NCBI RefSeq assembly: GCF_000023965.1
Contig: NC_013202.1
Location: 1,860,001 to 1,892,000, forward strand
Source: Halomicrobium mukohataei DSM 12286
GTDB taxonomy: Archaea; Halobacteriota; Halobacteria; Halobacteriales; Haloarculaceae
Direction of reading: 5' to 3'
DNA length: 32,000 bases
Positions 8,413-31,401 of this stretch are shown here, piece by piece. The number at the start of each line of letters is the position of its first letter. Position 1 is the first letter of the stretch. The notes beneath the pieces were generated by a model. The model ran no database searches and was not told the DNA's origin. It saw only the letters and a program-made list of their open reading frames with translations. A program made the translations under genes and the position numbers.

Positions 8413-9285
8413 TCAGATCGACAGCTCCGCGCCCACGTACAGCACGACGACGAGGAAGATCCAGACCACGTCGACGAAGTGCCAGTACATCGAGACCGTC
8501 GAGACCGACGTGTGTCGCTCTGCGGAGTACTGGCCGTAGATCGCCCGGACGAAGACGATGCCCAGCAGGACGGCACCCATCGTGACGTGGAGTCCGTGGA
8601 GGCCGGTCAGCCCGTAGAACGCGGAGGCGTAGGCACCTTCGGCGATGGTGAATCCTTCGCCGACGATGAACTCGTAGTACTCGTAGGCCTGTCCGCCGAT
8701 GAAGATCACGCCCAGCAGCAGCGTCAGTCCGAGCCATCTGACGAAGCTCTGCCGGTCACCGTCGAGGAGTTTGACGTGTGCGTAGTGCAGCGTCAGGGAA
8801 CTGATCACGAGGATGATCGTGTTGGCGATGACGAGGTTGCCGAAGACGTTCCCGCCGTGGGGGAGCAGTTCGGCCGACCACACGTTCGCGCCGCGGACGA
8901 AGAAGTAGTAGACGAAGCCGGCACCGAAGGTGGCGACCTCGCTACCCAGGAACAGCAGCATCGCGAACCGGAGCGTGCCTCCGGAGTGGTGATCCGTCCC
9001 GCGCTCCCAGAAGTTGGCGACGAAGGCGTGGTAGAGCCAGCCATAGAGACCAGCCAGGAAGATTCCGACGGTGGCGACGGTCGTCCCGGCGGCGATCAGC
9101 TCGGAGACGACGGGATTCTCTGCCTGTGAGAGGACGAACAGGCCGGCGGCGACGTAGATGCCGGCAGCGCCGATGGCGGTGATGAAGGGCCACCAGCTGG
9201 CCTCGCCGAACCCGCGGGGCCAGTCCTCGACGGCGGGGAGATGGTGATCCCCGTGCTCCTCTGACGTGTCTTCGGCTACGGTCAT
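8413..9285 (-). CDS. coxC: Cytochrome c oxidase subunit III
   Basis: Trimmed to ATG 9285 ('MTVAEDTSEEHGDHH...'), giving 290 aa. The polytopic sequence includes 'FLGSEVATFGAGF', 'GQAYEYYEF', 'FYGLTGLHGLHVTMG' and 'YWHFVDVVWIFLVVVLY', all classic Cox3 motifs. A TATA-like 'GCTTTTGATG' on the gene strand lies about 27 nt upstream. Confidence 0.85.
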   Translation of the reverse strand: MTVAEDTSEEHGDHHLPAVEDWPRGFGEASWWPFITAIGAAGIYVAAGLFVLSQAENPVVSELIAAGTTVATVGIFLAGLYGWLYHAFVANFWERGTDHHSGGTLRFAMLLFLGSEVATFGAGFVYYFFVRGANVWSAELLPHGGNVFGNLVIANTIILVISSLTLHYAHVKLLDGDRQSFVRWLGLTLLLGVIFIGGQAYEYYEFIVGEGFTIAEGAYASAFYGLTGLHGLHVTMGAVLLGIVFVRAIYGQYSAERHTSVSTVSMYWHFVDVVWIFLVVVLYVGAELSI

Positions 9286-9405
9286 ACGCGCTTCTTGCGA
9301 GTGGACCATCAAAAGCGCTTCCAACTCCGTGCGCTTCGCACGCGTAGCTGGCCGGTCGGGCGCGAATCGATGCCTTCTCCGTCGCCGAGCCGGAACGGTC
9401 GAACA

Positions 9406-10770
9406 ATGCTCCGGCGTCGCGTCGTCGCAGTCGTCGCCCTCGCAGTGCTCGCGGTCGGTCGCGCCGCCGCTCACGGCGGCAGTCTGGCCCAGGACATCCG
9501 CGAACCGCTGACGATTCCGACGTGGTTGTTCCTCTCGACCGGCGGGGCGGCGGTCGGCGCTTCGTTCCTGCTCGCCAGCTTCGTCACCGATCGGGCGCTG
9601 ATCGACGCGATTCACGACTGGCGTCGTGCGGTCGCGGTCCCGGCGCGTCGCGCCGCCGTGGCCTCGCTGCGGGTGCTCGGGATCGCTGGCGTCGTCCTCG
9701 TCGTGGTCGTCGGTTACCTCGGACCGACGGATGCGAGTTCGAACGCCGCGATCTTGCTGGTCTGGGTCGGCTGGTGGGCGGGGCTGTCGATGAGCGCGTA
9801 TCTGGTGGGCAACAGCTGGCCCGCACTCAATCCGTGGCGGACGGTCGCCGAACTGGTGCCCTCGCTCGACCTGCGGTATCCCGACCGGCTCGGCACGTGG
9901 CCCAGTGTCTTCGGTCTGCTGGCGCTGGTCTATCTGGAGGTCGTCAGTCCGCTGGCCGAGAACGCGTCGCTGCTCGCGACCACAGTGTTGGCGTACTCCG
10001 CCGTGACGCTCGCTGGCGCAGTTCTCTTCGGGCCGTCGACGTGGTTCGGGCAGGTCGACCCGCCGTCGCGCGTGTTTCGCTACTACGGGCGCGTCGCTCC
10101 CGTCTCGGCCGACGACGACGGGCTGACGCTGCGCCTTCCGGGAACTGCCCTGTCGGAGCGTCGGCTGGTCGACGGCCGCGACGAGGTCGCTTTCGTCCTC
10201 GCTTTGCTGTGGGTGACGACCTTCGACGGGTTCGTCTCGACGCCCGCCTGGCGTGGACTCGCCGGGCCCTTCGTGGGGCTCGGAATTCCGCCGCTGGGCG
10301 TCTATCTGCTCGCCCTCCTGCTGGGCTTCGGGCTGTTCTGGTCTCTGTACCTGCTCGCGGCCCGCCTCTCGCGTTCGACTGCAGAGACCTTCCTGACGCC
10401 CGCTGCGCTGGCCGCGCGATTCGCGCCGCCGTTGCTCGCGATCGTCGCCGGCTACCACTTCGCTCACTACCTCGACTACTTTCTCGGACTCGCTCCCTCA
10501 CTGCTCCAGACGCTGGCCGCGCCGCTGACGGCCCGGAGCACCGTTCTGGTGCTCTCGATACCGGGGTGGTTCGGCGGCGTCTCGATGGCCAGCATCATCG
10601 TCGGCCACCTGCTCGCGATCTGGGTGGCCCACGCGGCGGCCTACGACCTGTTCCCCGGTCGCTTGCAGGCGATCCGCTCGCAGTATCCGTTCATCGCCGT
10701 CATGGTCGTCTACACCATGACGAGCCTCTGGGTCATCTCCCAGCCAGATATTCCACTCCCCTACCTATGA
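9406..10770 (+). CDS. Polytopic integral membrane protein with a cleavable-looking signal peptide; unknown family
   Basis: 454 aa counted from ATG 9406 (an alternative ATG is at 9370). The N-terminus 'MLRRRVVAVVALAVLAVGRAAA|HGGS' is followed by roughly 10 or more hydrophobic helices. The gene is divergent from coxC and overlaps the next gene by ATGA. Confidence 0.6.
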   Translation: MLRRRVVAVVALAVLAVGRAAAHGGSLAQDIREPLTIPTWLFLSTGGAAVGASFLLASFVTDRALIDAIHDWRRAVAVPARRAAVASLRVLGIAGVVLVVVVGYLGPTDASSNAAILLVWVGWWAGLSMSAYLVGNSWPALNPWRTVAELVPSLDLRYPDRLGTWPSVFGLLALVYLEVVSPLAENASLLATTVLAYSAVTLAGAVLFGPSTWFGQVDPPSRVFRYYGRVAPVSADDDGLTLRLPGTALSERRLVDGRDEVAFVLALLWVTTFDGFVSTPAWRGLAGPFVGLGIPPLGVYLLALLLGFGLFWSLYLLAARLSRSTAETFLTPAALAARFAPPLLAIVAGYHFAHYLDYFLGLAPSLLQTLAAPLTARSTVLVLSIPGWFGGVSMASIIVGHLLAIWVAHAAAYDLFPGRLQAIRSQYPFIAVMVVYTMTSLWVISQPDIPLPYL

Positions 10771-16800: not shown

Positions 16801-17961
16801 ATGACTGATCCCATCGGAGCCCCTGGAACGAGTATGAGTCGCCGAGAGTTCGTCGCCGCAACGGGCCTGAGCGGTTCGCTGGCACTCGCCGGCTGTCAGG
16901 CCCCCACGTCGTCCTCGAAGGTCTCGACGACGAGCGAGACGGCGACGGAGACCTCGATGGCGAGTCAGTCCGAGTCGCTGCCGACGACGTCGCCGCCGGA
17001 GATCGTCAACGTCGACGAGCAGGGCGGCGAGGTCACGATTTCGACCGTCGCCTCGAAGCACATGGTCCACCCCGAGGAGACGATGGGCGGCCCGGTCGAA
17101 CTGCCGAAGGTGTGGGCGTTCCAGGCCGACGACGGCGAGCCCAGCGTCCCCGGTCCGATCCTCCGGACGACCGAAGGCGAGGACATGGAGGTGACGCTCG
17201 ACAACACCGACGCCAACATGCCCCACACGCTGCACTTCCACGGCGTCCGCAAGACCTGGGAGAACGACGGCGTGCCGACGACGACGGGCATCACGGTCAA
17301 TCCCGGCGAGAAGCACACCTACGAGATTCCGGCCAACGTCCCCGGGACGCACCTCTATCACTGCCACTACCAGACCCAGCGTCACATCGACATGGGGATG
17401 TACGGCATCTTCCGCGTCGACCCGAAGGGGTACGAGGAGGCCGACCAGGAGCTGTTCATGACGCTGAAAGACTGGGACTCCACCCTGAACAAGCAGATGG
17501 CCGGCATGGACGCCACCTACAGCCCGCGGGACCGCGACCCCGACGTGTTCACGATCAACGGCAAGAGCGCGCCCCGGACGCTCCATCCCGAAGACGGCTC
17601 GCCGGTCATCGTCTCGCAGGGCGACACGGTCCGCATCCATCTCACCAACAACGGGTACATGAGCCACCCGATGCACACGCACAACCACCGCTTCCGCGTG
17701 GTCGAGAAAGACGGCTCGAAGGTCCCCGAGGCAGCGCAGTACGAGCAGGACATCGTCAACGTCGCTCCCGCGGAGCGAAAGGCCATCGAGTTCGACGCCG
17801 ACGCCGACCCCGGCATCTACCTCATGCACTGCCACAAGGTCAGCCACGCGATGAACGGCAACACCTACCCCGGCGGGATGGTCGGCGGCATCGTCTACGA
17901 GGAGGCGATGGACTCGGATATCTTCGCCGAACTGATGGACTACGCCGGCTACGAAGGCTAA
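16801..17961 (+). CDS. Tat-lipoprotein two-domain multicopper oxidase
   Basis: 386 aa. 'SRREFVAATGLSGSLALAGC' combines a twin-arginine motif with a lipobox. The copper motifs are 'HTLHFHG', 'HLYHCHYQTQRHIDMGMYG', 'HPMHTHNH' and 'LMHCHKVSHAMNG'. A TATA-like 'CTATAAG' at 16769-16775, about 29 nt upstream, supports ATG 16801. Confidence 0.75.
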   Translation: MTDPIGAPGTSMSRREFVAATGLSGSLALAGCQAPTSSSKVSTTSETATETSMASQSESLPTTSPPEIVNVDEQGGEVTISTVASKHMVHPEETMGGPVELPKVWAFQADDGEPSVPGPILRTTEGEDMEVTLDNTDANMPHTLHFHGVRKTWENDGVPTTTGITVNPGEKHTYEIPANVPGTHLYHCHYQTQRHIDMGMYGIFRVDPKGYEEADQELFMTLKDWDSTLNKQMAGMDATYSPRDRDPDVFTINGKSAPRTLHPEDGSPVIVSQGDTVRIHLTNNGYMSHPMHTHNHRFRVVEKDGSKVPEAAQYEQDIVNVAPAERKAIEFDADADPGIYLMHCHKVSHAMNGNTYPGGMVGGIVYEEAMDSDIFAELMDYAGYEG

Positions 17962-19148: not shown

Positions 19149-19454
19149 TCACACCACGTAGGACTGCAGTTCACCGCGAGACTGCACGTCGACGAACCGG
19201 TAGCGCCGCCCGTCGTCGAGGTCGCCAGCGAAGTCCGGTCCGTCGACGCCGTCCATCCCGTAGACCTCGTCGGCCCCCCGACAGTCGTGGGCCAGGATCG
19301 ACCGCTCGACGGCTTCGGGCAGGCGCTCGCCGGGCGGGACCTCGACGACGAACAGCCGGTCGGTGAAGCTCTTTGCCGTCCAGGCGTCCTGGACGCCGTT
19401 GCGGTCGGCGATCTCCTCGGCCAGCGTGCGCAGCTGTGTGGCACGGTCGCTCAT
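19149..19454 (-). CDS. Hypothetical acidic protein (101 aa)
   Basis: This is the only ORF in the gap with haloarchaeal composition, and I do not recognise a family. It is preceded by a one-mismatch copy of the island palindrome, 37 nt upstream of its ATG. Confidence 0.5.
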   Translation of the reverse strand: MSDRATQLRTLAEEIADRNGVQDAWTAKSFTDRLFVVEVPPGERLPEAVERSILAHDCRGADEVYGMDGVDGPDFAGDLDDGRRYRFVDVQSRGELQSYVV

Positions 19455-19491: not shown

Positions 19492-19503
19492 CGAAGGTGT
19501 TCG
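19492..19503. promoter_or_regulatory. CGAAG-GT-GTTCG, a one-mismatch copy of the island palindrome
   Basis: The site is intergenic. 37 nt separate it from the ATG at 19454 on the minus strand, matching the spacing class of the perfect copies. Confidence 0.4.
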
Positions 19504-19557: not shown

Positions 19558-21402
19558 TCAGTCGCCGTCGGTCGGCCGGTCCTCGCCATCCTCGGACCGC
19601 AACTCCGACGAGGCTCCGCTCACTTCGCTCTCGGAACCACCGTCGGACCGCAACTCCGACGAGGCTCCGCTCACTTCGCTCTCGGAGCCGCCGTCGGTCA
19701 GTGCGGGCAGTCGCTCGGACGCGAACCACTCGAACTCGCGGGCTCGCATGCCGTCGCGGTCGAGGTTCCACGGGTCGTTGCTGGTCACTCGCGGCCCTTC
19801 GAGCCACGAGGTGACGACGTTCCAGAGGAAGAGGAGCTGGCCGACGACGAGCAGGACGACGCCCAGCGTCGCGATCTGGTGGAGCAGCGTGAACAGGTCG
19901 ATCGGACCGACGGCCACGTCGTAGGTCGCGTACCGCCGGGGCATCCCGGCGTAGCCCAGCAGGATCATCGGGAAGAAGGTGATGTTGGTCCCGATCATCG
20001 TGAGCCAGAAGTGGGCTTTGGCGAGCGTGCGCTGGTACCAGCGGCCGGTGTAGATGGGGAACCAGTAGTAGATCCCGGCGAACACCGCGAAGGCGATCCC
20101 GCCCATGATGACGTAGTGGAAGTGGGCGACGACCTGGTAGGTGTCGTGCAACAGGAGGTCGACGGGGATCGCCGCCTCGAAGACGCCGGTCATCCCGCCG
20201 ATGACGAAGTTGGCGATGAAGCCGACACAGAAGAGGAACGGTGCGGTCAGCCGCAGGCGGCCGTTCCACATCGTCGCCATCCAGTTGAACGTCTTGACCG
20301 CGCTGGGGATCGCGATCGAGATCGTGATCGCCATGAACGCGCCCCGAAGCCGCGGGTCCATCCCGGTCGCGAACATGTGGTGTGCCCAGACGCCAAAGGA
20401 GAGGACTCCCAGCGCCAGCGTCGAGTAGACGACGAACTTGAAGCCGAACAGCTTCCGACCGCAGAACTTCGGGAGGATGTAGCTGATCAGCCCCATCGGT
20501 GGGAGCACGAGGATGTACACCTCGGGATGGCCGAAGAACCAGAACAGGTGTTGCCACAACAGCGTCCCGCCGCCCTCACCGATCGCGAAGAAGGCCGTTC
20601 CCATGTTGCGATCGAGCAGCAACATTACGAGGGCGCTGCCCAGCAGGGGGAACGCAAAGAGGATCTGGCCGGACTGGACCAGCACGGTCCAGCTGAAGAT
20701 GTCGAGGTTGGCCCAGTCGATGTCCTCGCCCTGTTCGGTGAAGATGGTCGCGATGAAGTTGATCGCACCCATCGTCGCCGAGACGCCGGTCAGGTGCAGC
20801 CCCAGGATCATCAGGTCGATCGCGGGGCTTGGCTGATCCAGCGACAGCGGCGTGTACATCGTCCAGGCCGTCTGTGCGGGTGCGATGCCGGGGATGAAGA
20901 AGCCGGCCCAGATCAGGACCGCCCCGAAGGGCAACAGCCAGAACGCGATCGCGTTGATCCGCGGGAACGCCATGTCGTCAGCCCCGATCAACAGCGGGAC
21001 GAAGTAGTTCGAGAACGCCGCCAGGATCGGCGTCCCGAACAGGAACAGCATCGTGATTCCGTGGCTGGTCAGGAGCGCGTTGTACATCGCCGGCTGGAGG
21101 AAGTTCGAGGTCGGGGTGACCAGCTCGAACCGCATCAACACGACTGCCACGCCGCCCCAGGCGAAGGCCAGCACTGCGAAGGTCCCGTAGAGCAGTCCGA
21201 TGTCTTTGTGGTCGACCGTCGTGAGCCAGCGGGTCAGTCCGCCGGGCTTCTCGCCGTGGTGTGCCGTCTCGTCGACCGTCCCGCCACCGCCGCCGACGGC
21301 CGGCGTGTACGAGCGCCAGTTCTCTAGCCTCGTTACGACCGCGGCCGCACCGGCCACCAGTGCGACCATCACTGTCGTCAGGACGAGCTGCGTTGCTACC
21401 AT
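19558..21402 (-). CDS. coxA: Cytochrome c oxidase subunit I (A-type heme-copper oxidase)
   Basis: 614 aa. The canonical motifs are 'DHKDIGLLYG', 'YNALLTSHG', 'WFFGHPEVYILVLPPMG', 'WAHHMF' and 'VVAHFHYV'. The protein also has an N-terminal TM-containing extension and an acidic C-terminal tail containing a tandem repeat. Confidence 0.9.
   Translation of the reverse strand: MVATQLVLTTVMVALVAGAAAVVTRLENWRSYTPAVGGGGGTVDETAHHGEKPGGLTRWLTTVDHKDIGLLYGTFAVLAFAWGGVAVVLMRFELVTPTSNFLQPAMYNALLTSHGITMLFLFGTPILAAFSNYFVPLLIGADDMAFPRINAIAFWLLPFGAVLIWAGFFIPGIAPAQTAWTMYTPLSLDQPSPAIDLMILGLHLTGVSATMGAINFIATIFTEQGEDIDWANLDIFSWTVLVQSGQILFAFPLLGSALVMLLLDRNMGTAFFAIGEGGGTLLWQHLFWFFGHPEVYILVLPPMGLISYILPKFCGRKLFGFKFVVYSTLALGVLSFGVWAHHMFATGMDPRLRGAFMAITISIAIPSAVKTFNWMATMWNGRLRLTAPFLFCVGFIANFVIGGMTGVFEAAIPVDLLLHDTYQVVAHFHYVIMGGIAFAVFAGIYYWFPIYTGRWYQRTLAKAHFWLTMIGTNITFFPMILLGYAGMPRRYATYDVAVGPIDLFTLLHQIATLGVVLLVVGQLLFLWNVVTSWLEGPRVTSNDPWNLDRDGMRAREFEWFASERLPALTDGGSESEVSGASSELRSDGGSESEVSGASSELRSEDGEDRPTDGD
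19592..19693. repeat. 2 x 51-nt in-frame tandem duplication within the coxA 3' end
   Basis: The units at 19592-19642 and 19643-19693 differ at 2 positions. They encode 'DGGSESEVSGASSELRS' twice in the C-terminal tail of CoxA. Confidence 0.85.
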
Positions 21403-21441: not shown

Positions 21442-21453
21442 CGAACACGTTCG
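21442..21453. promoter_or_regulatory. CGAAC-AC-GTTCG palindrome upstream of coxA
   Basis: A perfect copy. 39 nt separate it from the coxA ATG at 21402. It lies in the 94-nt gap between coxA and the upstream 190-aa gene. Confidence 0.6.
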
Positions 21454-21496: not shown

Positions 21497-22069
21497 CTAG
21501 AACGGGGTGTCGAATCCGTCTTCCCCGGCAGCGCCGTCGGCCGCCGTGGCGTCGCCCGCGTCGATATCGGAGGGGATCTCGCCGGTCTCTCGGAACACCG
21601 TTTCGAGTTCCCGTAGCTTCGCGTTGATCGTCTCACTCTGGTGGTGCATCGGGTCGACCCGGACCCGCACGAGGTCGTACTCGTGGGACTCGCGACAGCC
21701 GTTCCAGGCCCGGAACGCGCCGACGGTCAGCGTGTCGCTCTGTGGACAGAACTCGGTCGTCGGCGTGAACTCCGCCCGGAGGACGCGCTCGCCGTCCGTC
21801 TCGGTCTCGCGGGCGTACCGAAAGCCCGACTCGGGATGTCGCCGGTCGAGGTTCAGCCGCGCGAGGTTGTAGCCGAAGGTCATGTCGATGACGCCGCGAC
21901 GCTCGAAGAGCGTCCGGGTCGCCCGGTGGAAGGCGGCGTGTTCGCGGCCGGTCAGGACCGCGCCGTCGAGGAACGGTCCCGGTTCCGGGAGGTGTTCGGG
22001 GGCGAACTCGTCGTAGTCGTCGTACTCGGGGCCCTCACCGTCGCGAGCGAATCCGGAGAGGAGGCTCAT
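21497..22069 (-). CDS. Hypothetical protein (190 aa) with a DUF59/MIP18-like C-terminal half
   Basis: The N-terminus is acidic. 'RAEFTPTTEFCPQSDTLTVGAFRA ... VRVRVDP' resembles the DUF59 'T-x-T-x-x-x-CP' metal-cluster-assembly motif. The ATG at 22069 lies 38 nt from the palindrome. Confidence 0.55.
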   Translation of the reverse strand: MSLLSGFARDGEGPEYDDYDEFAPEHLPEPGPFLDGAVLTGREHAAFHRATRTLFERRGVIDMTFGYNLARLNLDRRHPESGFRYARETETDGERVLRAEFTPTTEFCPQSDTLTVGAFRAWNGCRESHEYDLVRVRVDPMHHQSETINAKLRELETVFRETGEIPSDIDAGDATAADGAAGEDGFDTPF

Positions 22070-22107
22070 ACGTCAGCGTTGGGCCGCCAGCCCGCTGTGG
22101 TTGCTGG

Positions 22108-22119
22108 CGAACACGTTCG
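22108..22119. promoter_or_regulatory. CGAAC-AC-GTTCG palindrome centred between divergent genes
   Basis: A perfect copy. 38 nt separate it from ATG 22069 (minus strand) and 38 nt from GTG 22158 (plus strand). Confidence 0.65.
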
Positions 22120-22157
22120 GGCAAACCCAGACCGCGGTCCCGGCCGACGCTCCGATC

Positions 22158-22532
22158 GTGACCGCAACGTCGATCGACGCCGAACGACGCTACGACGACG
22201 CACAGTTCTCCGCACAGACGATCCACGAGACCGAGCGCCAGAAGGTCGTCCTGGGATACTTCGAGCCGGGACAGTTCATCCCCGTCCACGCGCCCGACAG
22301 CGACGTGGCGATCACGGTCGTGTCGGGTTCGGGCGTGATCCGCGACGGCGAGACCGACCACGCGGTCGAGCCCGGGAGCGTCGCCGTCGTGCCCGCAGGG
22401 ACGGAACGCGGGGTGAAAGCCGACGACGGCGAGCGACTTGAGGCGACGCTCGTCACCGCGCCACCGCCGACCGACGCCGAACACGAGCCGGTACGTCGGG
22501 GCCTCCAGACGGGACAGTTCGACCCGGACTGA
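22158..22532 (+). CDS. Cupin domain protein (124 aa)
   Basis: 'GQFIPVHAPDSDVAITVVSGSGVIRDGETDHAVEPGSVAVVPAG' shows the two-motif pattern of the cupin beta-barrel. The ORF track starts at TTG 22101, which would place the palindrome inside the coding sequence. The in-frame GTG at 22158 restores the 38-nt spacing seen at the other sites. Confidence 0.6.
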   Translation: MTATSIDAERRYDDAQFSAQTIHETERQKVVLGYFEPGQFIPVHAPDSDVAITVVSGSGVIRDGETDHAVEPGSVAVVPAGTERGVKADDGERLEATLVTAPPPTDAEHEPVRRGLQTGQFDPD

Positions 22533-22547
22533 TATCGTCGCTCTGGC

Positions 22548-22559
22548 CGAACACGTTCG
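22548..22559. promoter_or_regulatory. CGAAC-AC-GTTCG palindrome (extended form GGCCGAAC-AC-GTTCGGCC, 22545-22562)
   Basis: A perfect copy. 39 nt separate it from ATG 22599 of the DUF2249-cupin operon. Confidence 0.65.
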
Positions 22560-22598
22560 GCCAAAGTCCCTCCCGCTCGTGGCCACTACCGTCGACCG

Positions 22599-22832
22599 AT
22601 GCCAGCCGAAACACTCGATCTGCGCGAGGTACCGCCGCCACAGCGCCACCCCATGATCCACGAGGCGTTCCAGACCCTCGATAGCGGCGAGGCCCTGGAG
22701 ATCGTCAACGACCACGAACCGAAGCCGCTGTTCTACGAGTTCCAGGCGGAGGTCGAGGCCTTCGACGCGGAGGGGTACTCCTGTGAGGAGCGCGACGACG
22801 GCAACTACGTCGCCCGGCTCCCGAAAGCATGA
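22599..22832 (+). CDS. DUF2249 family protein (77 aa)
   Basis: 'LDLREVPPPQRHPMIHEAFQTLDSGEALEIVNDHEPKPLFYEF' matches my recollection of the DUF2249 signature: a TusA-like small domain with the pattern 'D.R.l.P..' ... 'l.l..dhdP.pL'. Confidence 0.7.
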   Translation: MPAETLDLREVPPPQRHPMIHEAFQTLDSGEALEIVNDHEPKPLFYEFQAEVEAFDAEGYSCEERDDGNYVARLPKA

Positions 22833-23131
22833 GCGACACCGAACTGGTCTCGCTGGACGACCTCGACGACGACGGCCGGGCGACGCTGTTCGAGCACGAA
22901 CCCCACACTGTCCGGCTCAGCCTCGCGGCCGACGAGGGCGTCCCGGCCCACCAACATCCCGACCGCCAGATCGTCTTTCACCAGCTCTCGGGGGAGCTGG
23001 ACCTCCACCTCGGTGACGAGGTCGTGTCACTGACGGCTGGCGACGTGGTCCGGTTCGACGGCGATCAGGACATCTCTCCCCAGGCCCGGACCGACAGCGA
23101 GGCGCTGTTGATCCTCGCGTCTTCGGCCTGA
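22829..23131 (+). CDS. Cupin domain protein (100 aa), translationally coupled to DUF2249
   Basis: Its ATG at 22829 overlaps the TGA at 22830-22832. 'GVPAHQHPDRQIVFHQLSGELDLHLGDEVVSLTAGDVVRFDG' is a cupin motif pair. Confidence 0.65.
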   Translation: MSDTELVSLDDLDDDGRATLFEHEPHTVRLSLAADEGVPAHQHPDRQIVFHQLSGELDLHLGDEVVSLTAGDVVRFDGDQDISPQARTDSEALLILASSA

Positions 23132-23186
23132 CCCCTCGGTTCGACCGTCCCCGGCCTCACCCCCCGTTTTCGCCGCGAACGCACTC

Positions 23187-23268
23187 ATACGGACGGTTGT
23201 AGACGTTTACCCAGTCGACCGCACGACGGCGTGCGATCGATCTGGTAACGACCGACAACTTTCCGTAT
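23187..23268. repeat. 82-nt long-hairpin repeat element, copy 2
   Basis: See copy 1. It lies between the convergent cupin gene (ending at 23131) and the 99-aa gene. Its last base overlaps that gene's stop codon at 23268-23270. Confidence 0.75.
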
Positions 23269-23567
23269 CACCGACTGCCAGAGAACAGCTCCAGGGCGGC
23301 CGACAGCGTCTCGTCGTCGCCGTCGCTCGCGGCCCGTTCGAGTTGCGCTTCCGGGACTGCCAGGAGCCGTTCGACGAGGCGGTCGCCGAGTCGCTCTACG
23401 GCGTCGCGCTCGCGTTCCGACAGCTCAAGCTCCGACAGCGCTCGCTCGACCTGGCGGTCGCGGACGGACTCGCCGCGTTCTCTGATCCGTTCGATCGCCG
23501 CGTTCTCCGCCGACCGGGTGGCGTCGCCCCCGGGTTCGCGGTCCGGCTCCGTCAGGCAGTCGGTCAT
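23268..23567 (-). CDS. Small helical protein (99 aa) resembling the C-terminal dimerisation domain of glutamyl-tRNA reductase
   Basis: Trimmed from the 23268..24149 ORF to ATG 23567, which overlaps the upstream stop (ATGA on the minus strand). 'RALSELELSERERDAVERLGDRLVERLLAVPEAQLERAASDGDDETLSAALELF' resembles the HemA/GlutR dimerisation helix region. Confidence 0.55.
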   Translation of the reverse strand: MTDCLTEPDREPGGDATRSAENAAIERIRERGESVRDRQVERALSELELSERERDAVERLGDRLVERLLAVPEAQLERAASDGDDETLSAALELFSGSR

Positions 23568-23824
23568 GCCTTCCAGATCGTCGTCACGGTCACGTCGTCG
23601 CCCTCGACGGTGTCGTAGGCGAAGCCGCGGTCGTCGAGTTTCGGGTACAGAAACTCCGGCGCGCGGTCGTTGAACTGGACGACGACCTCGTCGTCGTCGA
23701 TCTCCGCCAGGGTTTCGAGGGTGTTTTGCAGTGGCTTGGGCGGGCCCAGCGAACGCACGTCGAGTTCGCGGGTCGGTGCGTCGTCGGGTGCGTCGGTCGT
23801 CTGCAGGGCCTCGGTCGCGTCCAT
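23564..23824 (-). CDS. DUF2249 family protein (86 aa), second copy
   Basis: ATG 23824. 'RELDVRSLGPPKPLQNTLETLAEIDDDEVVVQFNDRAPEFLYPKL' shows the DUF2249 pattern. 38 nt separate the start from the palindrome. Confidence 0.7.
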   Translation of the reverse strand: MDATEALQTTDAPDDAPTRELDVRSLGPPKPLQNTLETLAEIDDDEVVVQFNDRAPEFLYPKLDDRGFAYDTVEGDDVTVTTIWKA

Positions 23825-23862
23825 GCGTGAGCAGACGGCTGCCCCCGGAGCAACCGTTGTCC

Positions 23863-23874
23863 CGAACGTGTTCG
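23863..23874. promoter_or_regulatory. CGAAC-GT-GTTCG palindrome centred between divergent genes
   Basis: A perfect copy. 38 nt separate it from ATG 23824 (minus strand) and 38 nt from ATG 23913 (plus strand). Confidence 0.65.
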
Positions 23875-23912
23875 GCCACACCGACAGCACGCTGGCGGAC
23901 GAACGGACGGGT

Positions 23913-25217
23913 ATGAGCGTCATTCCGGCCGCCGTCGACGAGTCGAGCGGTCCGCCGACTGCGATCCCGCTCGTCCACTTCCTCGTGGCACTGGCGTACC
24001 TGGTCGCGGGAGTGGCGACTGCCGCAGTGACGACCGGCTGGGCGGGGCAGGTCGCTCACGTCCACCTGTTCGTCGCGGGCTGGATCTGCCTGACCATCCT
24101 CGGGGCGATGACGCAGTTCGTCCCGGTCTGGTCGGGCGTCTCGCTGCACTCCAGACGGCTGGCGGTCCTCCAGTTGCCCCTCGCGGGGCTCGGGTTCGCG
24201 GGCCTGGCCGCTGGCTTTCTCACGGGCACGCTCGGGTTGCTCCCGATCGCTGGCGTGCTCGCGGTCGCCGGTGTCTGGCTCTTCGCCTACAATCTCGCCC
24301 GGACGCTCGCCGGGGCCCGTCCGTTCGATGCCACGGAGTCACACTTCGTCGTCGCCGTCGGCTGGTTCGTCGTCGTGACCACGCTGGGGATGGTGCTGGC
24401 GGTCGACTTCGCCGCGAGCGCGCTCCCCGCTGTGGGCCTCACCCACGCGACCGTTCGCTCGGCCCACGCGACGGCGGCGATCTTCGGTGCCGTCCTCACG
24501 ACGGTGCTCGGGGCGCTCTACCAGCTGGCGACGATGTTCACCCAGACCGAACTCGGTCCGATCGAGCGGCGCTTCCAGCGGGTCGAAACGCTCGCGTACC
24601 CGGTCGGCGTGGCGGCGCTCGTCGTGGGCCGGCTGTTCGGCGTCGCCCCGATCGCCCGCGCTGGCGGGGTGGTCGTCGCCCTCTCCGTGCTGGGCATCGC
24701 CGTCGTCGTCGCCAACAGGCTCCGCCAGACTCGCGTCGAGTGGACGCCGATGCTCACCCGGTACGGACTCGCGGCAGCGGGACTGGGCGCGTGGGCGGTC
24801 GCGGCGCTGGTCGGCTGGTCGCAGAACGCGCTCGGGCCGGCCGTCACCTTCGGCGGCCCGACGACGGGCCCGCTGTTACTGGCCGGCGGTCTGGCTTTCG
24901 TCGTCCTCGGAACGCTGTACCACATCGTTCCGTTTCTCGTGTGGGTCGACCGCTACAGCGATCAGGTCGGCCTCGAACCGGTGCCGATGGTCGACGATCT
25001 CTACCTCGATCGGCTGGCGGTCGTCGACGGCGTCGCCTACACCGCCGGGATCGCGCTGGTCGTCCTCGGTTCGGTCGCGCCGACGCTCCTCCCGTCGCCC
25101 GCGATCACTGCGGGCTGGGGACTGGCGGCCCTGGGCGCACTCGCCTTCGCGGCGAACCTGCTGCTCGTCGTCGTCGAACACGGCGACTACTCCGTCGGGA
25201 CCCTCGTCAGTGCGTAA
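23913..25217 (+). CDS. Polytopic (about 12 TM) His-containing membrane protein, possibly NnrS-like
   Basis: 434 aa counted from ATG 23913. 'AHVHLFVAGWICLTILGAMTQFVPVWSG' resembles the NnrS 'H.HE..fGf....i.GFllTAvPnWTG' segment, and further conserved-looking His residues occur ('SAHATAAIFG', 'LYHIVPF'). The family call is tentative. Confidence 0.55.
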   Translation: MSVIPAAVDESSGPPTAIPLVHFLVALAYLVAGVATAAVTTGWAGQVAHVHLFVAGWICLTILGAMTQFVPVWSGVSLHSRRLAVLQLPLAGLGFAGLAAGFLTGTLGLLPIAGVLAVAGVWLFAYNLARTLAGARPFDATESHFVVAVGWFVVVTTLGMVLAVDFAASALPAVGLTHATVRSAHATAAIFGAVLTTVLGALYQLATMFTQTELGPIERRFQRVETLAYPVGVAALVVGRLFGVAPIARAGGVVVALSVLGIAVVVANRLRQTRVEWTPMLTRYGLAAAGLGAWAVAALVGWSQNALGPAVTFGGPTTGPLLLAGGLAFVVLGTLYHIVPFLVWVDRYSDQVGLEPVPMVDDLYLDRLAVVDGVAYTAGIALVVLGSVAPTLLPSPAITAGWGLAALGALAFAANLLLVVVEHGDYSVGTLVSA

Positions 25218-25244: not shown

Positions 25245-25577
25245 TCAATCGACGTACAGCGAGTAGAGGATGATGGCGAAGGCGACCGTCGTCAGGAGGC
25301 TCTGGACGAAGACACTGACCACGAGCCAGTCCTGGAAGCCGCTCCCGGGGAGCCACGAGAGACGGGCCAGGATCCTGGGGACGAAGATGTCGATCACGCC
25401 CCCTATCAACGCCCCAAATGTCATTATCCCGAACCCCCACGAGAGGGCCTGTAACTCTCTGGCGCTCGTTCGCTGGTAGGCCCGATAGGAGTAGTACGTA
25501 ATCAGCCCACCGAGGATGAGCGTGAGCGTCTTCGTCGCGACGATACCGACCTGTGAACTGGGGACATGTGGGCTCAT
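25245..25577 (-). CDS. Small membrane protein (110 aa, about 4 TM), partner of the upstream wHTH regulator
   Basis: The protein is hydrophobic ('LTLILGGLITYYSY', 'WGFGIMTFGALIGGVIDIF', 'LLTTVAFAIILYSLY'). Its ATG at 25577 overlaps the regulator's stop (ATGA on the minus strand). Confidence 0.6.
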   Translation of the reverse strand: MSPHVPSSQVGIVATKTLTLILGGLITYYSYRAYQRTSARELQALSWGFGIMTFGALIGGVIDIFVPRILARLSWLPGSGFQDWLVVSVFVQSLLTTVAFAIILYSLYVD

Positions 25578-25951
25578 GTTTCTTTTCTGACCTCCGACCA
25601 GAGGTTTTCGAGGCGTTCGTCCGGCGTCCGAGGCCGGTGAGAGATCTCCACTTCGAACGTCCGGTCGTCGTCCAGCGAGATGACGACGTCTTCGAAGCTG
25701 ATCGCGTAGCGGCTGGCGTGTTGCCCGTCCGGACGCACCTCGACGCCCTCGTGGAGCAGCGACGCCTCCGTGAGCAGTTCGAGCTTTCGGTAGGTCGTCG
25801 ATAGCGGTACGCCGCTTGCCTCCGCGATCTCGCTGGCTGTCATCGGCTCTTCCAGGACGCTGACGATCGCCCGACAGTCCTCGTCGTCCAGCGCGTCGAG
25901 CACGTCCTCTAGCGCCGGCGACAACTCGTCTTCGAACGGGTCCCGGACCAT
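25574..25951 (-). CDS. ArsR-like winged helix-turn-helix transcriptional regulator
   Basis: 125 aa counted from ATG 25951. 'DCRAIVSVLEEPMTASEIAEASGVPLSTTYRKLELLTEASLLHE' is a wHTH. A TATA-like 'GTTTTACC' on the gene strand (25978-25985) lies about 31 nt upstream. Confidence 0.7.
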   Translation of the reverse strand: MVRDPFEDELSPALEDVLDALDDEDCRAIVSVLEEPMTASEIAEASGVPLSTTYRKLELLTEASLLHEGVEVRPDGQHASRYAISFEDVVISLDDDRTFEVEISHRPRTPDERLENLWSEVRKET

Positions 25952-26058: not shown

Positions 26059-26074
26059 GGCGAACATGTTCGCC
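26059..26074. promoter_or_regulatory. Perfect 16-bp palindrome GGCGAAC-AT-GTTCGCC upstream of norB
   Basis: It has the same CGAAC-N2-GTTCG core (26061-26072). 65 nt separate it from norB ATG 26138, and about 109 nt separate it from the divergent regulator's start at 25951. Confidence 0.6.
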
Positions 26075-26137: not shown

Positions 26138-28426
26138 ATGCAAGTACAACGTGCGACGATCGCGAAGATCATCGCGGTGGTCTTCGTGTTCAATCTGATC
26201 GTCATGGGTGGTGGTGCCTGGCTCGCGTACCAGTCGGCACCGCCGATTCCCGACGAAGTCGTCGGACCCGACGGCGACACGATCGTGACCGGACAGGAGA
26301 TCAGAGACGGCAAGAAGGCGTTCCAGAAGGACGGGCTGATGAACCACGGCTCGATCCTGGGCAACGGTGCGTACTACGGGCAGGACTACACTGCGGACAC
26401 GCTGGACCTGAAGGTCCAGCACATGCGGGACTACTACGCCCAGGAGCGCCACGACAGCGCGTACGACGCCCTCGAAAGCGACGAGCAGGCCGCCGTCGCC
26501 GACGTGGTCGAGCGGGACCTCGACGGCGAGTACGACGGCGGCCCGATCGAGTACTCCGCGGCGGAGGCCTACGCTCACGAGCAGGTCCGCCAGGAGTACG
26601 TCGAACGCTACCACGAGGGCGACCACGAGCGCGGCGTGCCCGTCGACATGATCGACAGCGAGGAGGCGGCCCGCCAGTTCGCGGACTTCGCGCTGTGGAC
26701 GGCGTGGTTCTCCCACACCGATCGACCGGGTGGCGACCACTCCTACACGAACGACTGGCCCTTCCAGCCCGGTGCCGGTAACGACGCGACGGCGGCGGCG
26801 ATGACCTGGAGCGTCATCGCGATGGTCCTGCTGGTCGCGGGGGCCGGCTTCGGCGTCTGGCTGTACAAGTCGATCTCCCTCCCCGAACCGTCCGCGAAGG
26901 GAATTTCCGTCCCCGAACCCGGCGACGTGAAGGTGTTCCCCAGCCAGCGGGCCGCCTTGCGCTTCGTGCCGGTCGCCGCCGGACTCTTCCTGGCACAGGT
27001 GTTGTTGGGCGGGTTACTGGCGCACTTCTACATCGAACGCGCCGGCTTCTTCGGCGTCGAAGAGATATTCGGCGTCCACATCCTCCAGCTCCTCCCCTTC
27101 GCCATCGCGAAGACCTGGCACATCGACCTGGGGATCCTCTGGATCGCCGCGACGTGGCTCGGGGCCGGACTGTTCCTTCCGCCGCTGCTGACGGGCCACG
27201 AACCGGATCGCCAGTCGACGTACGTCAACGGGCTGTTGGCGGCGATCGTCGTGGTCGTCGTCGGCGGTCTCGGCGGGATCTGGCTCGGCTCCAAGGGGTA
27301 CATCGACGGCAGCCTCTGGTGGATCCTGGGCAACGAGGGCCTGGAGTACCTCGAAGTCGGGAAGCTCTGGCAGTTCGGCATCCTCGCGGGCTTCCTCATC
27401 TGGGCCGTCCTCTCGGTTCGGGGCCTGAAGCCGCTGCTCGATAGGGAACCCAGCTACGGGCTCGCACACATGATTCTCTATGCCGGCGGCTCGATCGCCC
27501 TGCTCTTTACCGCGGGCTTCCTCTTTACCCCGGACACCAACATCGCCGTCACGGAGTTCTGGCGCTGGTGGGTCGTTCACATGTGGGTCGAAGGGGCCTT
27601 CGAGTTCTTCATCGTCGCCATCATCGGGCTGACGCTGGTGTCGATGAATCTCCTGAAGCGCCGCAGCGCCGAGAAGGCGGTCATGCTCCAGGCGCTGCTG
27701 GTGATGTCGACCGGCGTCATCGGCGTCTCCCATCACTACTGGTGGATCGGGATGCCCGATATCTGGGTGCCCATCGGGAGCGTCTTCTCGACGCTGGAGC
27801 TGATCCCGCTGGTGTTCATCCTCTACGAGGCACTGGGCCAGTACCGCGCTATGACCGGGGCCGGCGAGAGCTTCCCCTACCGGCTCCCGTTCATGTTCAT
27901 CATCGCCAGCGGCGTCTGGAACTTCGTCGGCGCTGGGGTGCTGGGCTTTTTCATCAACCTTCCGTTGATCAACTACTACGAGCACGGCACCTACCTCACC
28001 GTCGGCCACGCCCACGCCGCGATGTTCGGGGCCTTCGGCTTCCTCGCGCTGGGGATGGTCACGTACATGCTACAGATCGCCATCGAACCCGACCGCTGGG
28101 ACGGCACCTGGCTTCGCTACGCCTTCTGGTGCTGGAACGTCGGGCTGGCGCTAATGGTGTTCGTCTCCGTGCTGCCGGTGGGCTTCCTCCAGCTGGAGAC
28201 GATCTTCACCGGGAGCTACGCGGCCGGCCGGAGCCTGGCGTTCTACAACCAGCCGATCGTCCAGACCCTGTTCTGGGCTCGTCTGCCCGGTGACACGCTG
28301 ATGATCCTGGGGACGGCAATCTACGCGGCCGACATCGTGCGCAAACGGTTCGTCCTCCGAAAGACCGCGGCGGATCCGGACATCGACGACGTCGCCGTCG
28401 CGAAAGGCGTCCTCGACGACGACTAA
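26138..28426 (+). CDS. norB: Quinol-dependent nitric oxide reductase (single-subunit qNOR, NorB/NorZ)
   Basis: 762 aa counted from ATG 26138. An N-terminal TM helix is followed by a periplasmic domain ('GKKAFQKDGLMNHGSILGNGAYYGQDYTAD') and then an HCO subunit I-like core ('HMWVEGAFEFF', 'HHYWWIG', 'TVGHAHAAMFGAFG'). The length and architecture are typical of qNOR. Confidence 0.85.
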   Translation: MQVQRATIAKIIAVVFVFNLIVMGGGAWLAYQSAPPIPDEVVGPDGDTIVTGQEIRDGKKAFQKDGLMNHGSILGNGAYYGQDYTADTLDLKVQHMRDYYAQERHDSAYDALESDEQAAVADVVERDLDGEYDGGPIEYSAAEAYAHEQVRQEYVERYHEGDHERGVPVDMIDSEEAARQFADFALWTAWFSHTDRPGGDHSYTNDWPFQPGAGNDATAAAMTWSVIAMVLLVAGAGFGVWLYKSISLPEPSAKGISVPEPGDVKVFPSQRAALRFVPVAAGLFLAQVLLGGLLAHFYIERAGFFGVEEIFGVHILQLLPFAIAKTWHIDLGILWIAATWLGAGLFLPPLLTGHEPDRQSTYVNGLLAAIVVVVVGGLGGIWLGSKGYIDGSLWWILGNEGLEYLEVGKLWQFGILAGFLIWAVLSVRGLKPLLDREPSYGLAHMILYAGGSIALLFTAGFLFTPDTNIAVTEFWRWWVVHMWVEGAFEFFIVAIIGLTLVSMNLLKRRSAEKAVMLQALLVMSTGVIGVSHHYWWIGMPDIWVPIGSVFSTLELIPLVFILYEALGQYRAMTGAGESFPYRLPFMFIIASGVWNFVGAGVLGFFINLPLINYYEHGTYLTVGHAHAAMFGAFGFLALGMVTYMLQIAIEPDRWDGTWLRYAFWCWNVGLALMVFVSVLPVGFLQLETIFTGSYAAGRSLAFYNQPIVQTLFWARLPGDTLMILGTAIYAADIVRKRFVLRKTAADPDIDDVAVAKGVLDDD

Positions 28427-29911: not shown

Positions 29912-30181
29912 ATGCCAGACGACCCCCTGTCAGTCACCGTCGACGAACCGCGGGACGCTGTCTCTCGGGAGTGGGAACTGTTCGTCCGCGAGCACGAGTC
30001 GGACCCGCTCACGCACGCGGGCAGCGTCAGCGCGCCGTCGGCCGACATCGCCCGCGAACAGGCTCGGCAGCTGTTCGACTGGAGCGCCGAGGCGCTGTGG
30101 CTCTGTCCCGCCGAGGCGGTCGAGCGGTGCCAGACCGAGCGTGCCTCGGCCGTCGCCGCCACGGAGGTCGACGAGGCGTGA
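29912..30181 (+). CDS. PaaB-like small protein (89 aa), radical-SAM-partnered
   Basis: 'REWELFVREHESDPLTHAGSVSAPSADIAREQARQLFDWSAEALWLCPAEAV' parallels the PaaB pattern 'W.l.EVFVR......H.H.GS..A.......AR..Y.RR.....IWVV'. Its TGA at 30179-30181 overlaps the downstream GTG at 30178-30180. Confidence 0.65.
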   Translation: MPDDPLSVTVDEPRDAVSREWELFVREHESDPLTHAGSVSAPSADIAREQARQLFDWSAEALWLCPAEAVERCQTERASAVAATEVDEA

Positions 30182-31401
30182 TCTCCGTCAGCAAACTCCT
30201 CTGTGACCTCGACGCAGAGGGCGACGGGCTGCGCTACGACGCGGCCGAGGACTCTCGGAAAGAACAGATCCGCGACCGCAAGCAGCGCCGGCCGGTCGTC
30301 GTCTGGAACGTCACCAAGCAGTGCAATCTCTACTGTGACCACTGTTACGCCGCCGCCGACACCGAGGTCGCCGACGGCGAGCTGTCGACGGCCGAAGGGA
30401 AGGCGATGCTCGACGGGCTGGCCGACTACGGCGTCCCCGTCGTCCTCTTTTCTGGCGGCGAACCGCTCGTTCGGGACGACCTCGAAGAGCTGATTGCCTA
30501 CGCCGACGAACGCGGCGTTCGTCCGGTGCTCTCGACCAACGGCACGCTCATCACCGAGGACCGGGCCCGCTCGCTCCGGGACGCCGGTCTGAAGTACGCC
30601 GGTGTCTCCGTCGACGGTCTCCCCGAGCGCAACGACGCCTTCCGGGGGAAAGAGGGCGCGTTCGACGCCGCCGTCCGGGGGATCCGCAACTCCCTGGACG
30701 CGGGCCTCAAGACCGGCCTGCGGTACACGATCACAGAACGCAACGCGCCGGACCTCACGGGCGTCGTCGACTTGCTCAGCGACAAGGGGCTCGATCGCTT
30801 TTGCTTCTATCACCTCGACTACGGCGGACGGGGGACGGAGATCCTCGACGCCGACCTGACGCCCGAACAGCGCCGCGACGCCGTCGAGACGGTCTGTGAC
30901 GTGACCCGGGACTACCACGAGCGCGGCGAGGAGATCGAGACGCTGCTGGTCGGCAACTACGCCGACGCCGCTTACATCGTCGAGTACGCGCGCGAACACT
31001 ACGGCGAGGCCAAGGCCCGCACCGTCTACGAGTACCTCCGGACCAACGGCGGCGATCCCACGGGCGAACGGGTCGCCGACGTGGACTACCAGGGTAACGT
31101 CCATCTCACGCAGTTCTGGCAGAACTACTCGCTTGGCAACGTCCGGGACCGCTCCTTCGGCGCGATCTGGGAGGACGAGTCGAACCCCCTGCTCTCGGCG
31201 CTCCGGGACCGCGAGTCTCGCCTGACCGGGAAGTGCGCCGACTGTGCGTACAAGGAGGTCTGTCGCGGGGGCTCCCGCCTGCGCGCGCTGACCGTCGAGA
31301 ACGACCTCTTCGCCCCCGATCCGCAGTGTTACCTCACCGACGAGGAGATCCAGACGCCACCGCCCGCGATGCCCGATACGGGCGCGGGGACGGCGGACTG
31401 A
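30178..31401 (+). CDS. Radical SAM/SPASM-domain enzyme, NirJ/AhbC/AhbD-like
   Basis: 407 aa counted from GTG 30178. It has the 'VVWNVTKQCNLYCDHCY' CxxxCxxC cluster motif, 'VLFSGGEPLVRDD', and a C-terminal SPASM-type Cys cluster ('GKCADCAYKEVCRGGSRLRA...DPQCYL'). Confidence 0.8.
   Translation: MISVSKLLCDLDAEGDGLRYDAAEDSRKEQIRDRKQRRPVVVWNVTKQCNLYCDHCYAAADTEVADGELSTAEGKAMLDGLADYGVPVVLFSGGEPLVRDDLEELIAYADERGVRPVLSTNGTLITEDRARSLRDAGLKYAGVSVDGLPERNDAFRGKEGAFDAAVRGIRNSLDAGLKTGLRYTITERNAPDLTGVVDLLSDKGLDRFCFYHLDYGGRGTEILDADLTPEQRRDAVETVCDVTRDYHERGEEIETLLVGNYADAAYIVEYAREHYGEAKARTVYEYLRTNGGDPTGERVADVDYQGNVHLTQFWQNYSLGNVRDRSFGAIWEDESNPLLSALRDRESRLTGKCADCAYKEVCRGGSRLRALTVENDLFAPDPQCYLTDEEIQTPPPAMPDTGAGTAD

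Follow-up and report, generated by a model that had tools for sequence, protein, structure and literature searches.

What do the small genes wedged between a respiratory oxidase gene and a nitric oxide (NO) reductase gene do in a halophilic archaeon? The question is raised by a 32,000-nucleotide (nt) stretch of Halomicrobium mukohataei DSM 12286 (NC_013202.1, positions 1,860,001 to 1,892,000; hereafter the window, with coordinates counted from its first letter). The window is haloarchaeal DNA of 66% G+C, and its nearest genome is that of Halomicrobium katesii (protein identity 95-97%). Five transcription units lie between the gene for an A-type cytochrome oxidase subunit I (coxA, 19558-21402, minus strand) and the gene for a quinol-type nitric oxide reductase (norB, 26138-28426, plus strand). 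An earlier reading of the DNA (the original prediction) had proposed that this block is a haloarchaeal module which protects metallocentres or inserts cofactors on behalf of NorB and/or CoxA. We find instead that it is the Halomicrobium version of a module conserved in archaea and bacteria, whose core comprises at least one DUF2249 protein, a membrane protein of 12 transmembrane helices (TM) that we call H12, and a DUF59-type protein. The block is no haloarchaeal novelty, and the gene set has been noticed before in Haloferax and Thermus; biochemically it is uncharacterised.

Gene content of the block

The first unit (21497-22069, minus strand) encodes a 190-amino acid (aa) protein of the DUF7998 family and the second (22158-22532, plus strand) a Cupin_2 protein of 124 aa (cupin A). 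The third joins a DUF2249 gene (DUF2249-1, 22599-22832, plus strand) to a second cupin gene (cupin B, 22829-23131, plus strand). The fourth joins another DUF2249 gene (DUF2249-2, 23564-23824, minus strand, start ATG 23824) to a gene for a 99-aa protein (23268-23567, minus strand) that matches the dimerisation domain of glutamyl-tRNA reductase (GluTR). The fifth is the gene for H12 itself (23913-25217, plus strand, 434 aa). Both pairs had been described as coupled through ATGA, and both overlaps are present (22829-22832 and 23564-23567). Cupin A most likely starts at GTG 22158 and not at TTG 22101, because the latter overlaps a palindrome; for H12, the candidate start TTG 23670 was replaced by ATG 23913. 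No NCBIfam family covers the 190-aa, DUF2249 or H12 proteins, nor the DUF7521 protein encoded next to the block.

Conservation in archaea and bacteria

An exhaustive profile search with H12 returned 1947 representative relatives, 807 of them at E<=1e-10. The close relatives, more than 700, are from Halobacteria wherever they are named, and many carry weak COX1 matches. Among the distant relatives with readable context, the same partner types were found in each, and DUF59 genes flank H12 in 7 other taxa. Profile-profile alignment (hhalign) supported homology to H12 with probabilities of 99.3% for the Thermus protein and 98.7% for the Sinorhizobium protein. In Thermus thermophilus JL-18 the genes run narGHJI, a major facilitator superfamily gene, DUF2249 (72 aa), DUF2249 (273 aa), a hypothetical gene, protoglobin, H12 and DUF59, and its two DUF2249 genes correspond in place and length to drpA and drpB. 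On the JL-18 plasmid pTTJL1801 (4527-8325), everything from the drpA/drpB-type genes through the hypothetical, protoglobin and H12 genes to DUF59 is co-directional. In the published DrpAB work, drpAB counts as a bicistronic operon (PMC6282519). Sinorhizobium meliloti pSymA presents DUF2249, H12, DUF2249 and DUF59 genes between a pirin gene on one side and nnrS and nirK on the other. Candidatus Hydrothermarchaeales contigs carry an HTH_10 gene, a DUF59/DUF7998 gene, ScdA_N, H12 and a DUF438-hemerythrin-PAS (PAS_10) gene; the association of DUF2249 with hemerythrin and NO, which the original prediction described for bacteria, is seen directly there. The same families line up on metagenomic contigs as DUF2249, DUF2249, H12, DUF59 and Cupin_2 (L083) or as DUF2249, a 272-aa DUF1858+DUF2249 protein, H12 and DUF59 (L084). 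On L085, where a Crp/FNR regulator adjoins the module, and on a Joint Genome Institute (JGI) contig, DUF2249 and DUF59 genes flank H12. Aliarcobacter has H12 and DUF59. The module is therefore not confined to haloarchaea.

One position in these arrangements is variable and holds a cupin, pirin, hemerythrin or protoglobin gene, with two cupins in this window. No hemerythrin is encoded by the window open reading frames (ORFs) scanned, as had been remarked, and the idea that cupins take its slot fits the cross-taxon pattern. The exchangeable slot suggests a gas- or metal-reactive centre.

Within the haloarchaea, we examined the region around H12 in 80 species, for operator spacing as well as for genes within 10 kb. 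The 190-aa gene was near H12 in 54 of the 80 loci, a DUF2249 gene in about 50, cupin B in 40, the GluTR-dimer gene in 21 and cupin A in 18. Respiratory genes were also counted: true NirK (about 19 loci), norB (14-18), coxA (8) and a different two-domain multicopper oxidase (17). Co-directional pairs recurred as DUF2249 followed by H12 (13 loci), DUF2249-1 by cupin B (12), the 190-aa gene by H12 and H12 by cupin B (11 each), and DUF2249-2 by the GluTR-dimer gene (10). H12 is the hub of the arrangements, and a tie to coxA is peculiar to Halomicrobium.

The counts bear directly on the proposal that the small proteins serve specifically to assemble the NorB and/or CoxA encoded next to them, or to insert cofactors into these enzymes. 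Their operator is indeed the one that precedes norB and coxA in the window, and the DUF59 family is annotated 'metal-sulfur cluster assembly factor'. Yet the constant partner of the module is H12: the 190-aa gene tracks it in most loci, the two respiratory genes accompany it in few, and the bacterial DUF59 gene is always directly downstream of H12 and not of nor or cox genes. Neither NorB nor CoxA, moreover, is known to have an iron-sulfur cluster. We therefore give this tie to NorB and CoxA very little chance. That unrelated small genes simply gathered between coxA and norB, forming no functional unit, is scarcely credible. The arrangement does vary between genera and several H12 genes stand alone, but the same families recur together in archaea and bacteria, three gene pairs are translationally coupled (the third is described with the neighbouring genes), and one common operator precedes the genes at a fixed distance. 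Synteny and operator data already contradict such a chance assembly.

A common operator for the block

The window holds 7 CGAA-N4-TTCG sites against 0.92 expected by chance, and none of 100 shuffles reached 7. Exact CGAACRYGTTCG palindromes begin at 21442, 22108, 22548, 23863 and 26061, and three of them (22108, 22548 and 23863) serve all five units with centre-to-start distances of 44.5-45.5 nt. Two lie exactly midway between divergent start codons: CGAACRYGTTCG at 22108-22119 between the 190-aa gene and cupin A, and CGAACGTGTTCG at 23863-23874 between DUF2249-2 and H12, each 44.5 nt from either start. The third, CGAACRYGTTCG at 22548-22559, stands 45.5 nt before the DUF2249-1/cupin B operon. 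The equal spacing of the five units, a central point of the original prediction, is borne out by these distances. The flanking respiratory genes have the palindrome too, as CGAACACGTTCG at 21442-21453 (centre 45.5 nt from the coxA start, ATG 21402) and CGAACATGTTCG at 26061-26072 (centre 71.5 nt from the norB start, ATG 26138). A norB start at 26111, 44.5 nt from the palindrome, was rejected since that codon is GTA, and in other species the norB spacing has its mode at about 73.5 nt.

Across the 80 species, the operator is enriched eight-fold around H12. The commonest spacing between operator and start is again 44.5 nt, in 39 loci for H12, 32 for DUF2249-2 and 19 of 21 for the 190-aa gene, and is 45.5-46.5 nt for DUF2249-1. 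Fourteen palindromes each serve two divergent module genes, and the divergent DUF2249-2/H12 arrangement with one common palindrome is found in 6 other species. Between operator and start, conserved but weak A-rich positions stand at -33, -27 and -10, and a strong TATA is missing. Scans of the window for sigma-70 promoters and intrinsic terminators returned none, as expected of an archaeon.

This palindrome has been published as the operator of anaerobic and denitrification genes in haloarchaea. According to a paper that cites Hattori 2016 for it, the Haloferax volcanii promoters of nirK and norB, of halocyanin genes and of ahbD (anaerobic heme synthase) contain CGAA-X4-TTCG, and nirK reporter activity requires it (PMC5746218). 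In Haloferax mediterranei, the nir, nor and nos promoters have the motif CGAAYATDKTYG in common, and point mutations in it reduce promoter activity (PMC10062603). At the level of its operator sequences, the block belongs to this low-oxygen/N-oxide regulon, as had been supposed.

Expression in a relative agrees with the assignment. Haloferax mediterranei genes E6P09_00770 to 00795, each preceded by the motif, are induced under denitrification with log2 fold changes of 3.2-8.7 (10- to 400-fold) (PMC11218638). During denitrification, the nirK-nor cluster of this species showed log2 fold changes by RNA-seq of 8.65 and 3.24 for two DUF2249 genes, 7.93 for a hypothetical gene, 8.10 for a cupin gene and 5.60 for a pseudogene (PMC11218638, Tables S3 and S5). 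Five other Haloferax species have the order DUF2249-1, H12, cupin B, 190-aa gene, nirK, DUF2249-2 ... norB, which matches the published table one for one; we infer from this synteny that the hypothetical gene encodes DUF7998 and that the pseudogene corresponds to H12. These syntenic counterparts rank among the most strongly denitrification-induced genes.

The oxidase-like membrane protein H12

H12 had been described as a His-rich, NnrS-like protein of 12 TM. The 12 long helices stand in the structural model (predicted local distance difference test score, pLDDT, 88.8). The likeness to NnrS does not: a profile search with PF05940 (NnrS) gave no match to the window protein, and among 22 members of the family NnrS matched 1 (E 0.33), as against 14 for COX1 (best 4e-11). 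'His-rich' was likewise an overstatement, with 9 His in 434 aa. Foldseek aligned the model to the cbb3 subunit CcoN, cNOR NorB and subunit I of the bo3 and aa3 oxidases (TM-score 0.62-0.74, E 1e-6 to 1e-4), and the segment AHVH...QFVPVWSG has local profile similarity to the 'HFH' region of COX1 TM10-12. An hhalign comparison of H12 with a qNor alignment gave no match. By profiles and model, H12 is best classified as an oxidase-superfamily protein that is neither a canonical oxidase or NO reductase nor NnrS. Its N-terminus appears to be inside, with Arg-rich loops after TM2, 4, 6 and 8.

Six His are invariant across Halobacteria (H22, H51, H144, H185, H337 and H423). The Thermus and Sinorhizobium homologues keep H51 (TM2), H185 (TM6) and a motif in the cytoplasmic loop between TM10 and TM11, which reads Y-x-[IV]-[VL]-P-F..W..RY..G.E.VP and is joined in Halobacteria by three cytoplasm-side His. 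Of the canonical ligands of CuB/FeB and heme, the HH pair of TM7 and the HxH pair of TM10 are absent from H12, and TM10 has a single His.

These residues weigh on the possibility that H12 itself catalyses an N-oxide or oxygen reaction, for example by consuming NO, as one more functional branch of the heme-copper oxidase superfamily, with the DUF59-like protein as its metal-insertion factor and the cupins and DUF2249 proteins as subunits or electron partners. The fold is that of oxidase and NO reductase catalytic subunits, the number of His invariant in Halobacteria equals that of canonical oxidases, many taxa have the gene close to nirK or nor, and its Haloferax neighbours, the hypothetical and cupin genes, are induced like nirK and nor, with the presumed H12 pseudogene induced as well. 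Opposed to this are the loss of the His triad (TM6 plus the TM7 pair) and of the TM10 pair, the conservation of just two His across archaea and bacteria, and conserved polar residues that seem to lie on the cytoplasmic face and not at a buried binuclear site. Haloferax mediterranei, a complete denitrifier, moreover has its presumed orthologue annotated as a pseudogene. A catalytic H12 is in our view improbable.

Soluble proteins encoded with H12

The 190-aa protein had been called DUF59-like for its TPTTEFCP motif, a description that fails in a direct search with PF01883 (no match at E<=1) and holds at the level of remote homology. All homologues carry the precomputed Pfam family PF25979 (DUF7998), which has more than 1200 relatives, all named ones from Halobacteria. 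The alignment contains invariant H44, H48, H78, C108, H129 and H142, with C108 within TPTTxFCPQ (TPTTEFCPQ in the window protein), and a variable, acidic, disordered tail that ends in an invariant Pro-Phe and may be a docking peptide. The structural model (pLDDT 75 overall, 86-96 in most of the core, residues 81-160) had as its seven best Protein Data Bank (PDB) matches by Foldseek DUF59/MIP18 proteins without exception (CIAO2B, FAM96A, Rv1466), and 3LNO and 3CQ1 were matched too. An hhalign comparison with the DUF59 neighbours of H12 gave 94% probability (E 1.4e-7) with the T..CP motif aligned. Because of the fold and profile-profile matches, we classify DUF7998 by model and alignment as a remote DUF59 homologue at the superfamily level. 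Searches of the H12 and DUF7998 profiles against PDB sequences returned no meaningful match.

The family assignments of the other soluble proteins all exceeded the Pfam gathering thresholds, as anticipated. DUF2249 (PF10006, cutoff 29.5 bits) scored 86.5 bits (1.1e-24) on DUF2249-1 and 49.8 bits (3e-13) on DUF2249-2; a sequence search for DUF2249 relatives with solved structure found none. DUF2249-1 has conserved RH and DHxPxPL motifs, of which RH and DHxP are kept in 45 sequences, and by these motifs it is a candidate for the His-bearing, DrpA-like type. DUF2249-2 is of the type without a conserved His. Cupin_2 (PF07883, cutoff 27.2 bits) scored 31.5 bits (1.5e-7) on cupin A and 36.5 bits (3.9e-9) on cupin B. 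Cupin A has a single conserved His and cupin B a conserved H41-x-H43, which is the HxH half of the canonical metal site; the complete two-motif site (HxH..E and ..H) is in neither.

GlutR_dimer (PF00745, cutoff 22.9 bits) scored 51 bits (1.9e-13) on the 99-aa protein and is carried by all 18 of its homologues, which are 92-120 aa long. Against full-length HemA (TIGR01035), the protein matches model positions 340-413 only (28.6 bits versus a cutoff of 209). Haloarculaceae add a stand-alone GluTR dimerisation domain to the module. The regulon includes anaerobic heme synthesis, through ahbD in Haloferax, and a TIGR04347 gene of NirJ/Ahb-like type lies near the block in the window. One may speculate that the 99-aa protein binds HemA and in this way links the module with the supply of tetrapyrroles.

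Proposed working of the module

We propose that the module forms a cytoplasm-facing membrane metalloprotein complex that handles NO, iron centres or redox state and feeds back on gene expression in anaerobic respiration, a reading to which we assign a probability of about one half. Its genes would have promoters with a weak TATA and apparently leaderless transcripts, and a helix-turn-helix regulator, bound to the operator as a dimer, would activate them. H12 would sit in the membrane, N-terminus inside, with one heme held by the conserved His of TM2 and TM6, and would expose to the cytoplasm the conserved face made of the TM10-11 loop and, in Halobacteria, the three nearby His. Onto this face would dock the acidic soluble proteins, none of which has a signal peptide, namely the DUF2249 proteins, the cupins and the DUF59-like protein, which contributes a Cys/His site. 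The complex would then deal with NO, iron-centre or redox status cytoplasmically during N-oxide respiration. It would protect metal centres or help them mature and, like Thermus DrpA/DrpB, act back on gene expression, and the GluTR-dimer protein would plausibly couple it to tetrapyrrole supply. We include iron-centre handling under NO because of the DUF59 proteins, because ScdA_N and hemerythrin genes occur as neighbours, and because the nar operon of Haloferax mediterranei encodes a DUF2249 domain fused to an iron-sulfur carrier NTPase (PMC11218638). Feedback on transcription is included because of the Thermus data: in drpA and drpB mutants the nar and dnr operons are no longer under nitrate control (PMC6282519). 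Metallocentre protection or cofactor insertion, the function first put forward for the block, is a plausible candidate.

Several observations weigh against the proposal. Approximately a quarter of the haloarchaeal H12 genes are alone, with no other module gene within 10 kb. Outside Halobacteria, hhalign comparisons showed no conservation of H337, H22, H144 and H423. The single heme that H12 probably holds through TM2 and TM6 is deduced from two conserved His. The leaderless, activator-dependent promoters are deduced from geometry, not from mapped 5' ends. The Aliarcobacter H12-DUF59 pair is on a plasmid between transposases, with no DUF2249-annotated gene and no denitrification genes nearby, and the 10.6-kb contig L083 is free of any denitrification gene. 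From these last two cases it follows that the module is linked to anaerobic/NO conditions generally and not strictly to denitrification.

Many of the same data could describe what is mainly a sensor or signalling device instead, in which DUF2249 and a gas-binding partner (cupin, hemerythrin-PAS or protoglobin) detect nitrate, NO or O2, H12 is the membrane anchor and the output falls on NarO-type or other helix-turn-helix regulators, as proposed for DrpA/DrpB. The Thermus drpA and drpB mutants alter dnrST and nar expression, and DrpB is membrane-associated (PMC6282519). The co-directional run of JL-18 joins genes of this type to H12 and DUF59, the variable slot includes sensor-type architectures (DUF438-hemerythrin-PAS_10 and protoglobin), and transcription factors adjoin the module in Hydrothermarchaeales (HTH_10), on L085 (Crp/FNR) and in the window (HTH_20-DUF7521). 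On the other hand, the Thermus double mutant makes NarG with little nitrate reductase activity, which points to maturation (PMC6282519). The fusion to an iron-sulfur carrier NTPase speaks against this reading as well, and Pfam found no output domain in any module protein of the window. No signalling role is known for DUF59 proteins. On balance, we consider a mainly signalling device unlikely.

The proposed metalloprotein complex can also be cast in a bolder form, possible but doubtful, in which H12, the DUF59-type protein, DUF2249 and the exchangeable cupin, pirin, hemerythrin or protoglobin make up one physical complex, a fourth functional branch of the heme-copper oxidases, distinct from oxidases, NO reductases and NnrS, that senses or repairs NO and redox damage to iron centres. 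If true, one complex from Halobacteria to Thermus and rhizobia would explain both the membrane binding of DrpB, which has no TM segment (PMC6282519), and the dual phenotypes of DrpA/DrpB.

Neighbouring features of the window

Between H12 and norB sits a gene pair joined by a third ATGA overlap (25574-25577), in which an HTH_20 (ArsR-like) regulator gene (25574-25951, minus strand) is the upstream partner of a gene for a DUF7521 membrane protein (25245-25577, minus strand). The pair recurs in 10 loci, from Haloarculaceae and others, and is a candidate local sensor-regulator pair. The norB product has a NorB cytochrome c-like domain and a COX1 domain. CoxA is recognised by COX1 (2e-148) and TIGR02891 (663 bits), and a 51-bp tandem duplication at the 3' end of its gene (19592-19697, 2.1 copies, 96% match) repeats a 17-residue Ser/Glu-rich C-terminal segment. 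Downstream of coxA, an ORF of 101 aa without a recognised family (19149-19454, minus strand) is preceded, at a centre-to-start distance of 43.5 nt, by the variant palindrome CGAAGGTGTTCG (19492-19503) and is a possible further member of the regulon. Two homologues of this ORF were found in the 80 loci; hidden Markov model matches to antisense ORFs within H12 genes were artefacts and were discarded.

A two-domain multicopper oxidase gene (16801-17961, plus strand) upstream of the cluster was considered as nirK and rejected: its score of 72.8 bits falls short of the TIGR02376 cutoff (296), and identity to Haloferax NirK is only 26%. Its product is 67-74% identical to a protein encoded beside H12 in 16 other species and 97.7% identical to that of H. 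katesii. Some 1.8 kb downstream of norB lies the TIGR04347 gene (~30178-31401, plus strand, 724 bits), which encodes a pseudo-SAM/SPASM protein of Halobacteria related to NirJ, AhbC and AhbD; its position parallels that of ahbD in the Haloferax nirK-nor cluster. A palindrome-driven promoter for this gene was rejected; no operator was found at the usual distance. Unrelated to the module are a PGF-CTERM surface protein with DUF7827 and DUF7282 domains (3-2858, plus strand), an ORF with a COX3 domain (8413-10467, minus strand) and a tRNA gene (5887-5960, plus strand). The tRNA, outside the block, was the only hit of an Rfam scan of the window.

Comparison with known systems

NnrS, also with 12 TM, belongs to the oxidase superfamily without being catalytic, and its gene lies in denitrification loci that respond to NO. 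H12 resembles it in helix number, superfamily and presence in denitrification loci, but differs in its lack of a PF05940 match, and on S. meliloti pSymA a genuine nnrS gene adjoins the H12 homologue. The catalytic subunits CcoN, NorB and CoxA have the same 12-helix fold as H12, which lacks, in contrast, the TM7 HH and TM10 HxH pairs and a subunit II gene and has its conserved surface on the cytoplasmic side.

DUF7998 is comparable to the DUF59/MIP18 proteins (SufT, CIAO2A/B, PaaD; PF01883) in fold, in the T-x-T-T-x-x-C-P motif, in profile-profile match and in its operon position beside H12. It differs in being unscored by PF01883, in an additional N-terminal helical region with invariant His and in the acidic Pro-Phe tail, which is missing from the bacterial DUF59 counterparts. 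The best, though weak, PDB match of the 99-aa protein is an isolated plant GluTR dimerisation domain (4YVQ). Unlike glutamyl-tRNA reductase, it has neither a catalytic nor an NADPH-binding domain, and its gene is coupled to a DUF2249 gene.

The closest system is the Haloferax mediterranei nirK-nor cluster, whose accessory genes include two DUF2249 genes, a cupin and, by synteny, DUF7998 and H12, with the same operator and induction by denitrification. The gene order is different, and the window adds cupin A, the GluTR-dimer protein, coxA, the HTH_20-DUF7521 pair and an intact H12. The main texts on this cluster discuss only the DUF2249 genes and leave the cupin, DUF7998 and the oxidase-like protein unnamed (PMC11218638, PMC10062603). 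Our literature searches on DUF7998 and on cupin plus Haloferax returned nothing relevant. New in this analysis are the placement of DUF7998 as a remote DUF59 relative, the reassignment of the 12-TM protein to an oxidase-like family distinct from NnrS, the fixed -44.5 operator geometry common to divergent genes, and the link from the haloarchaeal genes to the Thermus drpAB and rhizobial nnrS-nirK neighbourhoods.

Thermus DrpA/DrpB are likewise DUF2249 proteins of a nitrate-respiration cluster, induced by anoxia and nitrate (PMC6282519), and the drpAB-type genes of JL-18 are also accompanied by an H12 homologue and DUF59. DrpB consists of DUF1858 and two DUF2249 domains, whereas the DUF2249 proteins of the window are single-domain and coupled to a cupin or a GluTR-dimer protein. 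Genetic data on any component come solely from Thermus DrpA/DrpB and include regulatory as well as maturation phenotypes (PMC6282519). Denitrification and NO loci from archaea to rhizobia repeatedly carry the module families, and the module may help to show how cells withstand NO, or how they adjust respiration that matters for N2O, in hypersaline habitats and elsewhere. Thermus DrpA/DrpB, the rhizobial 'hypothetical' genes beside nirK and nnrS, and the haloarchaeal genes seem to belong to a single module centred on an oxidase-like membrane protein.

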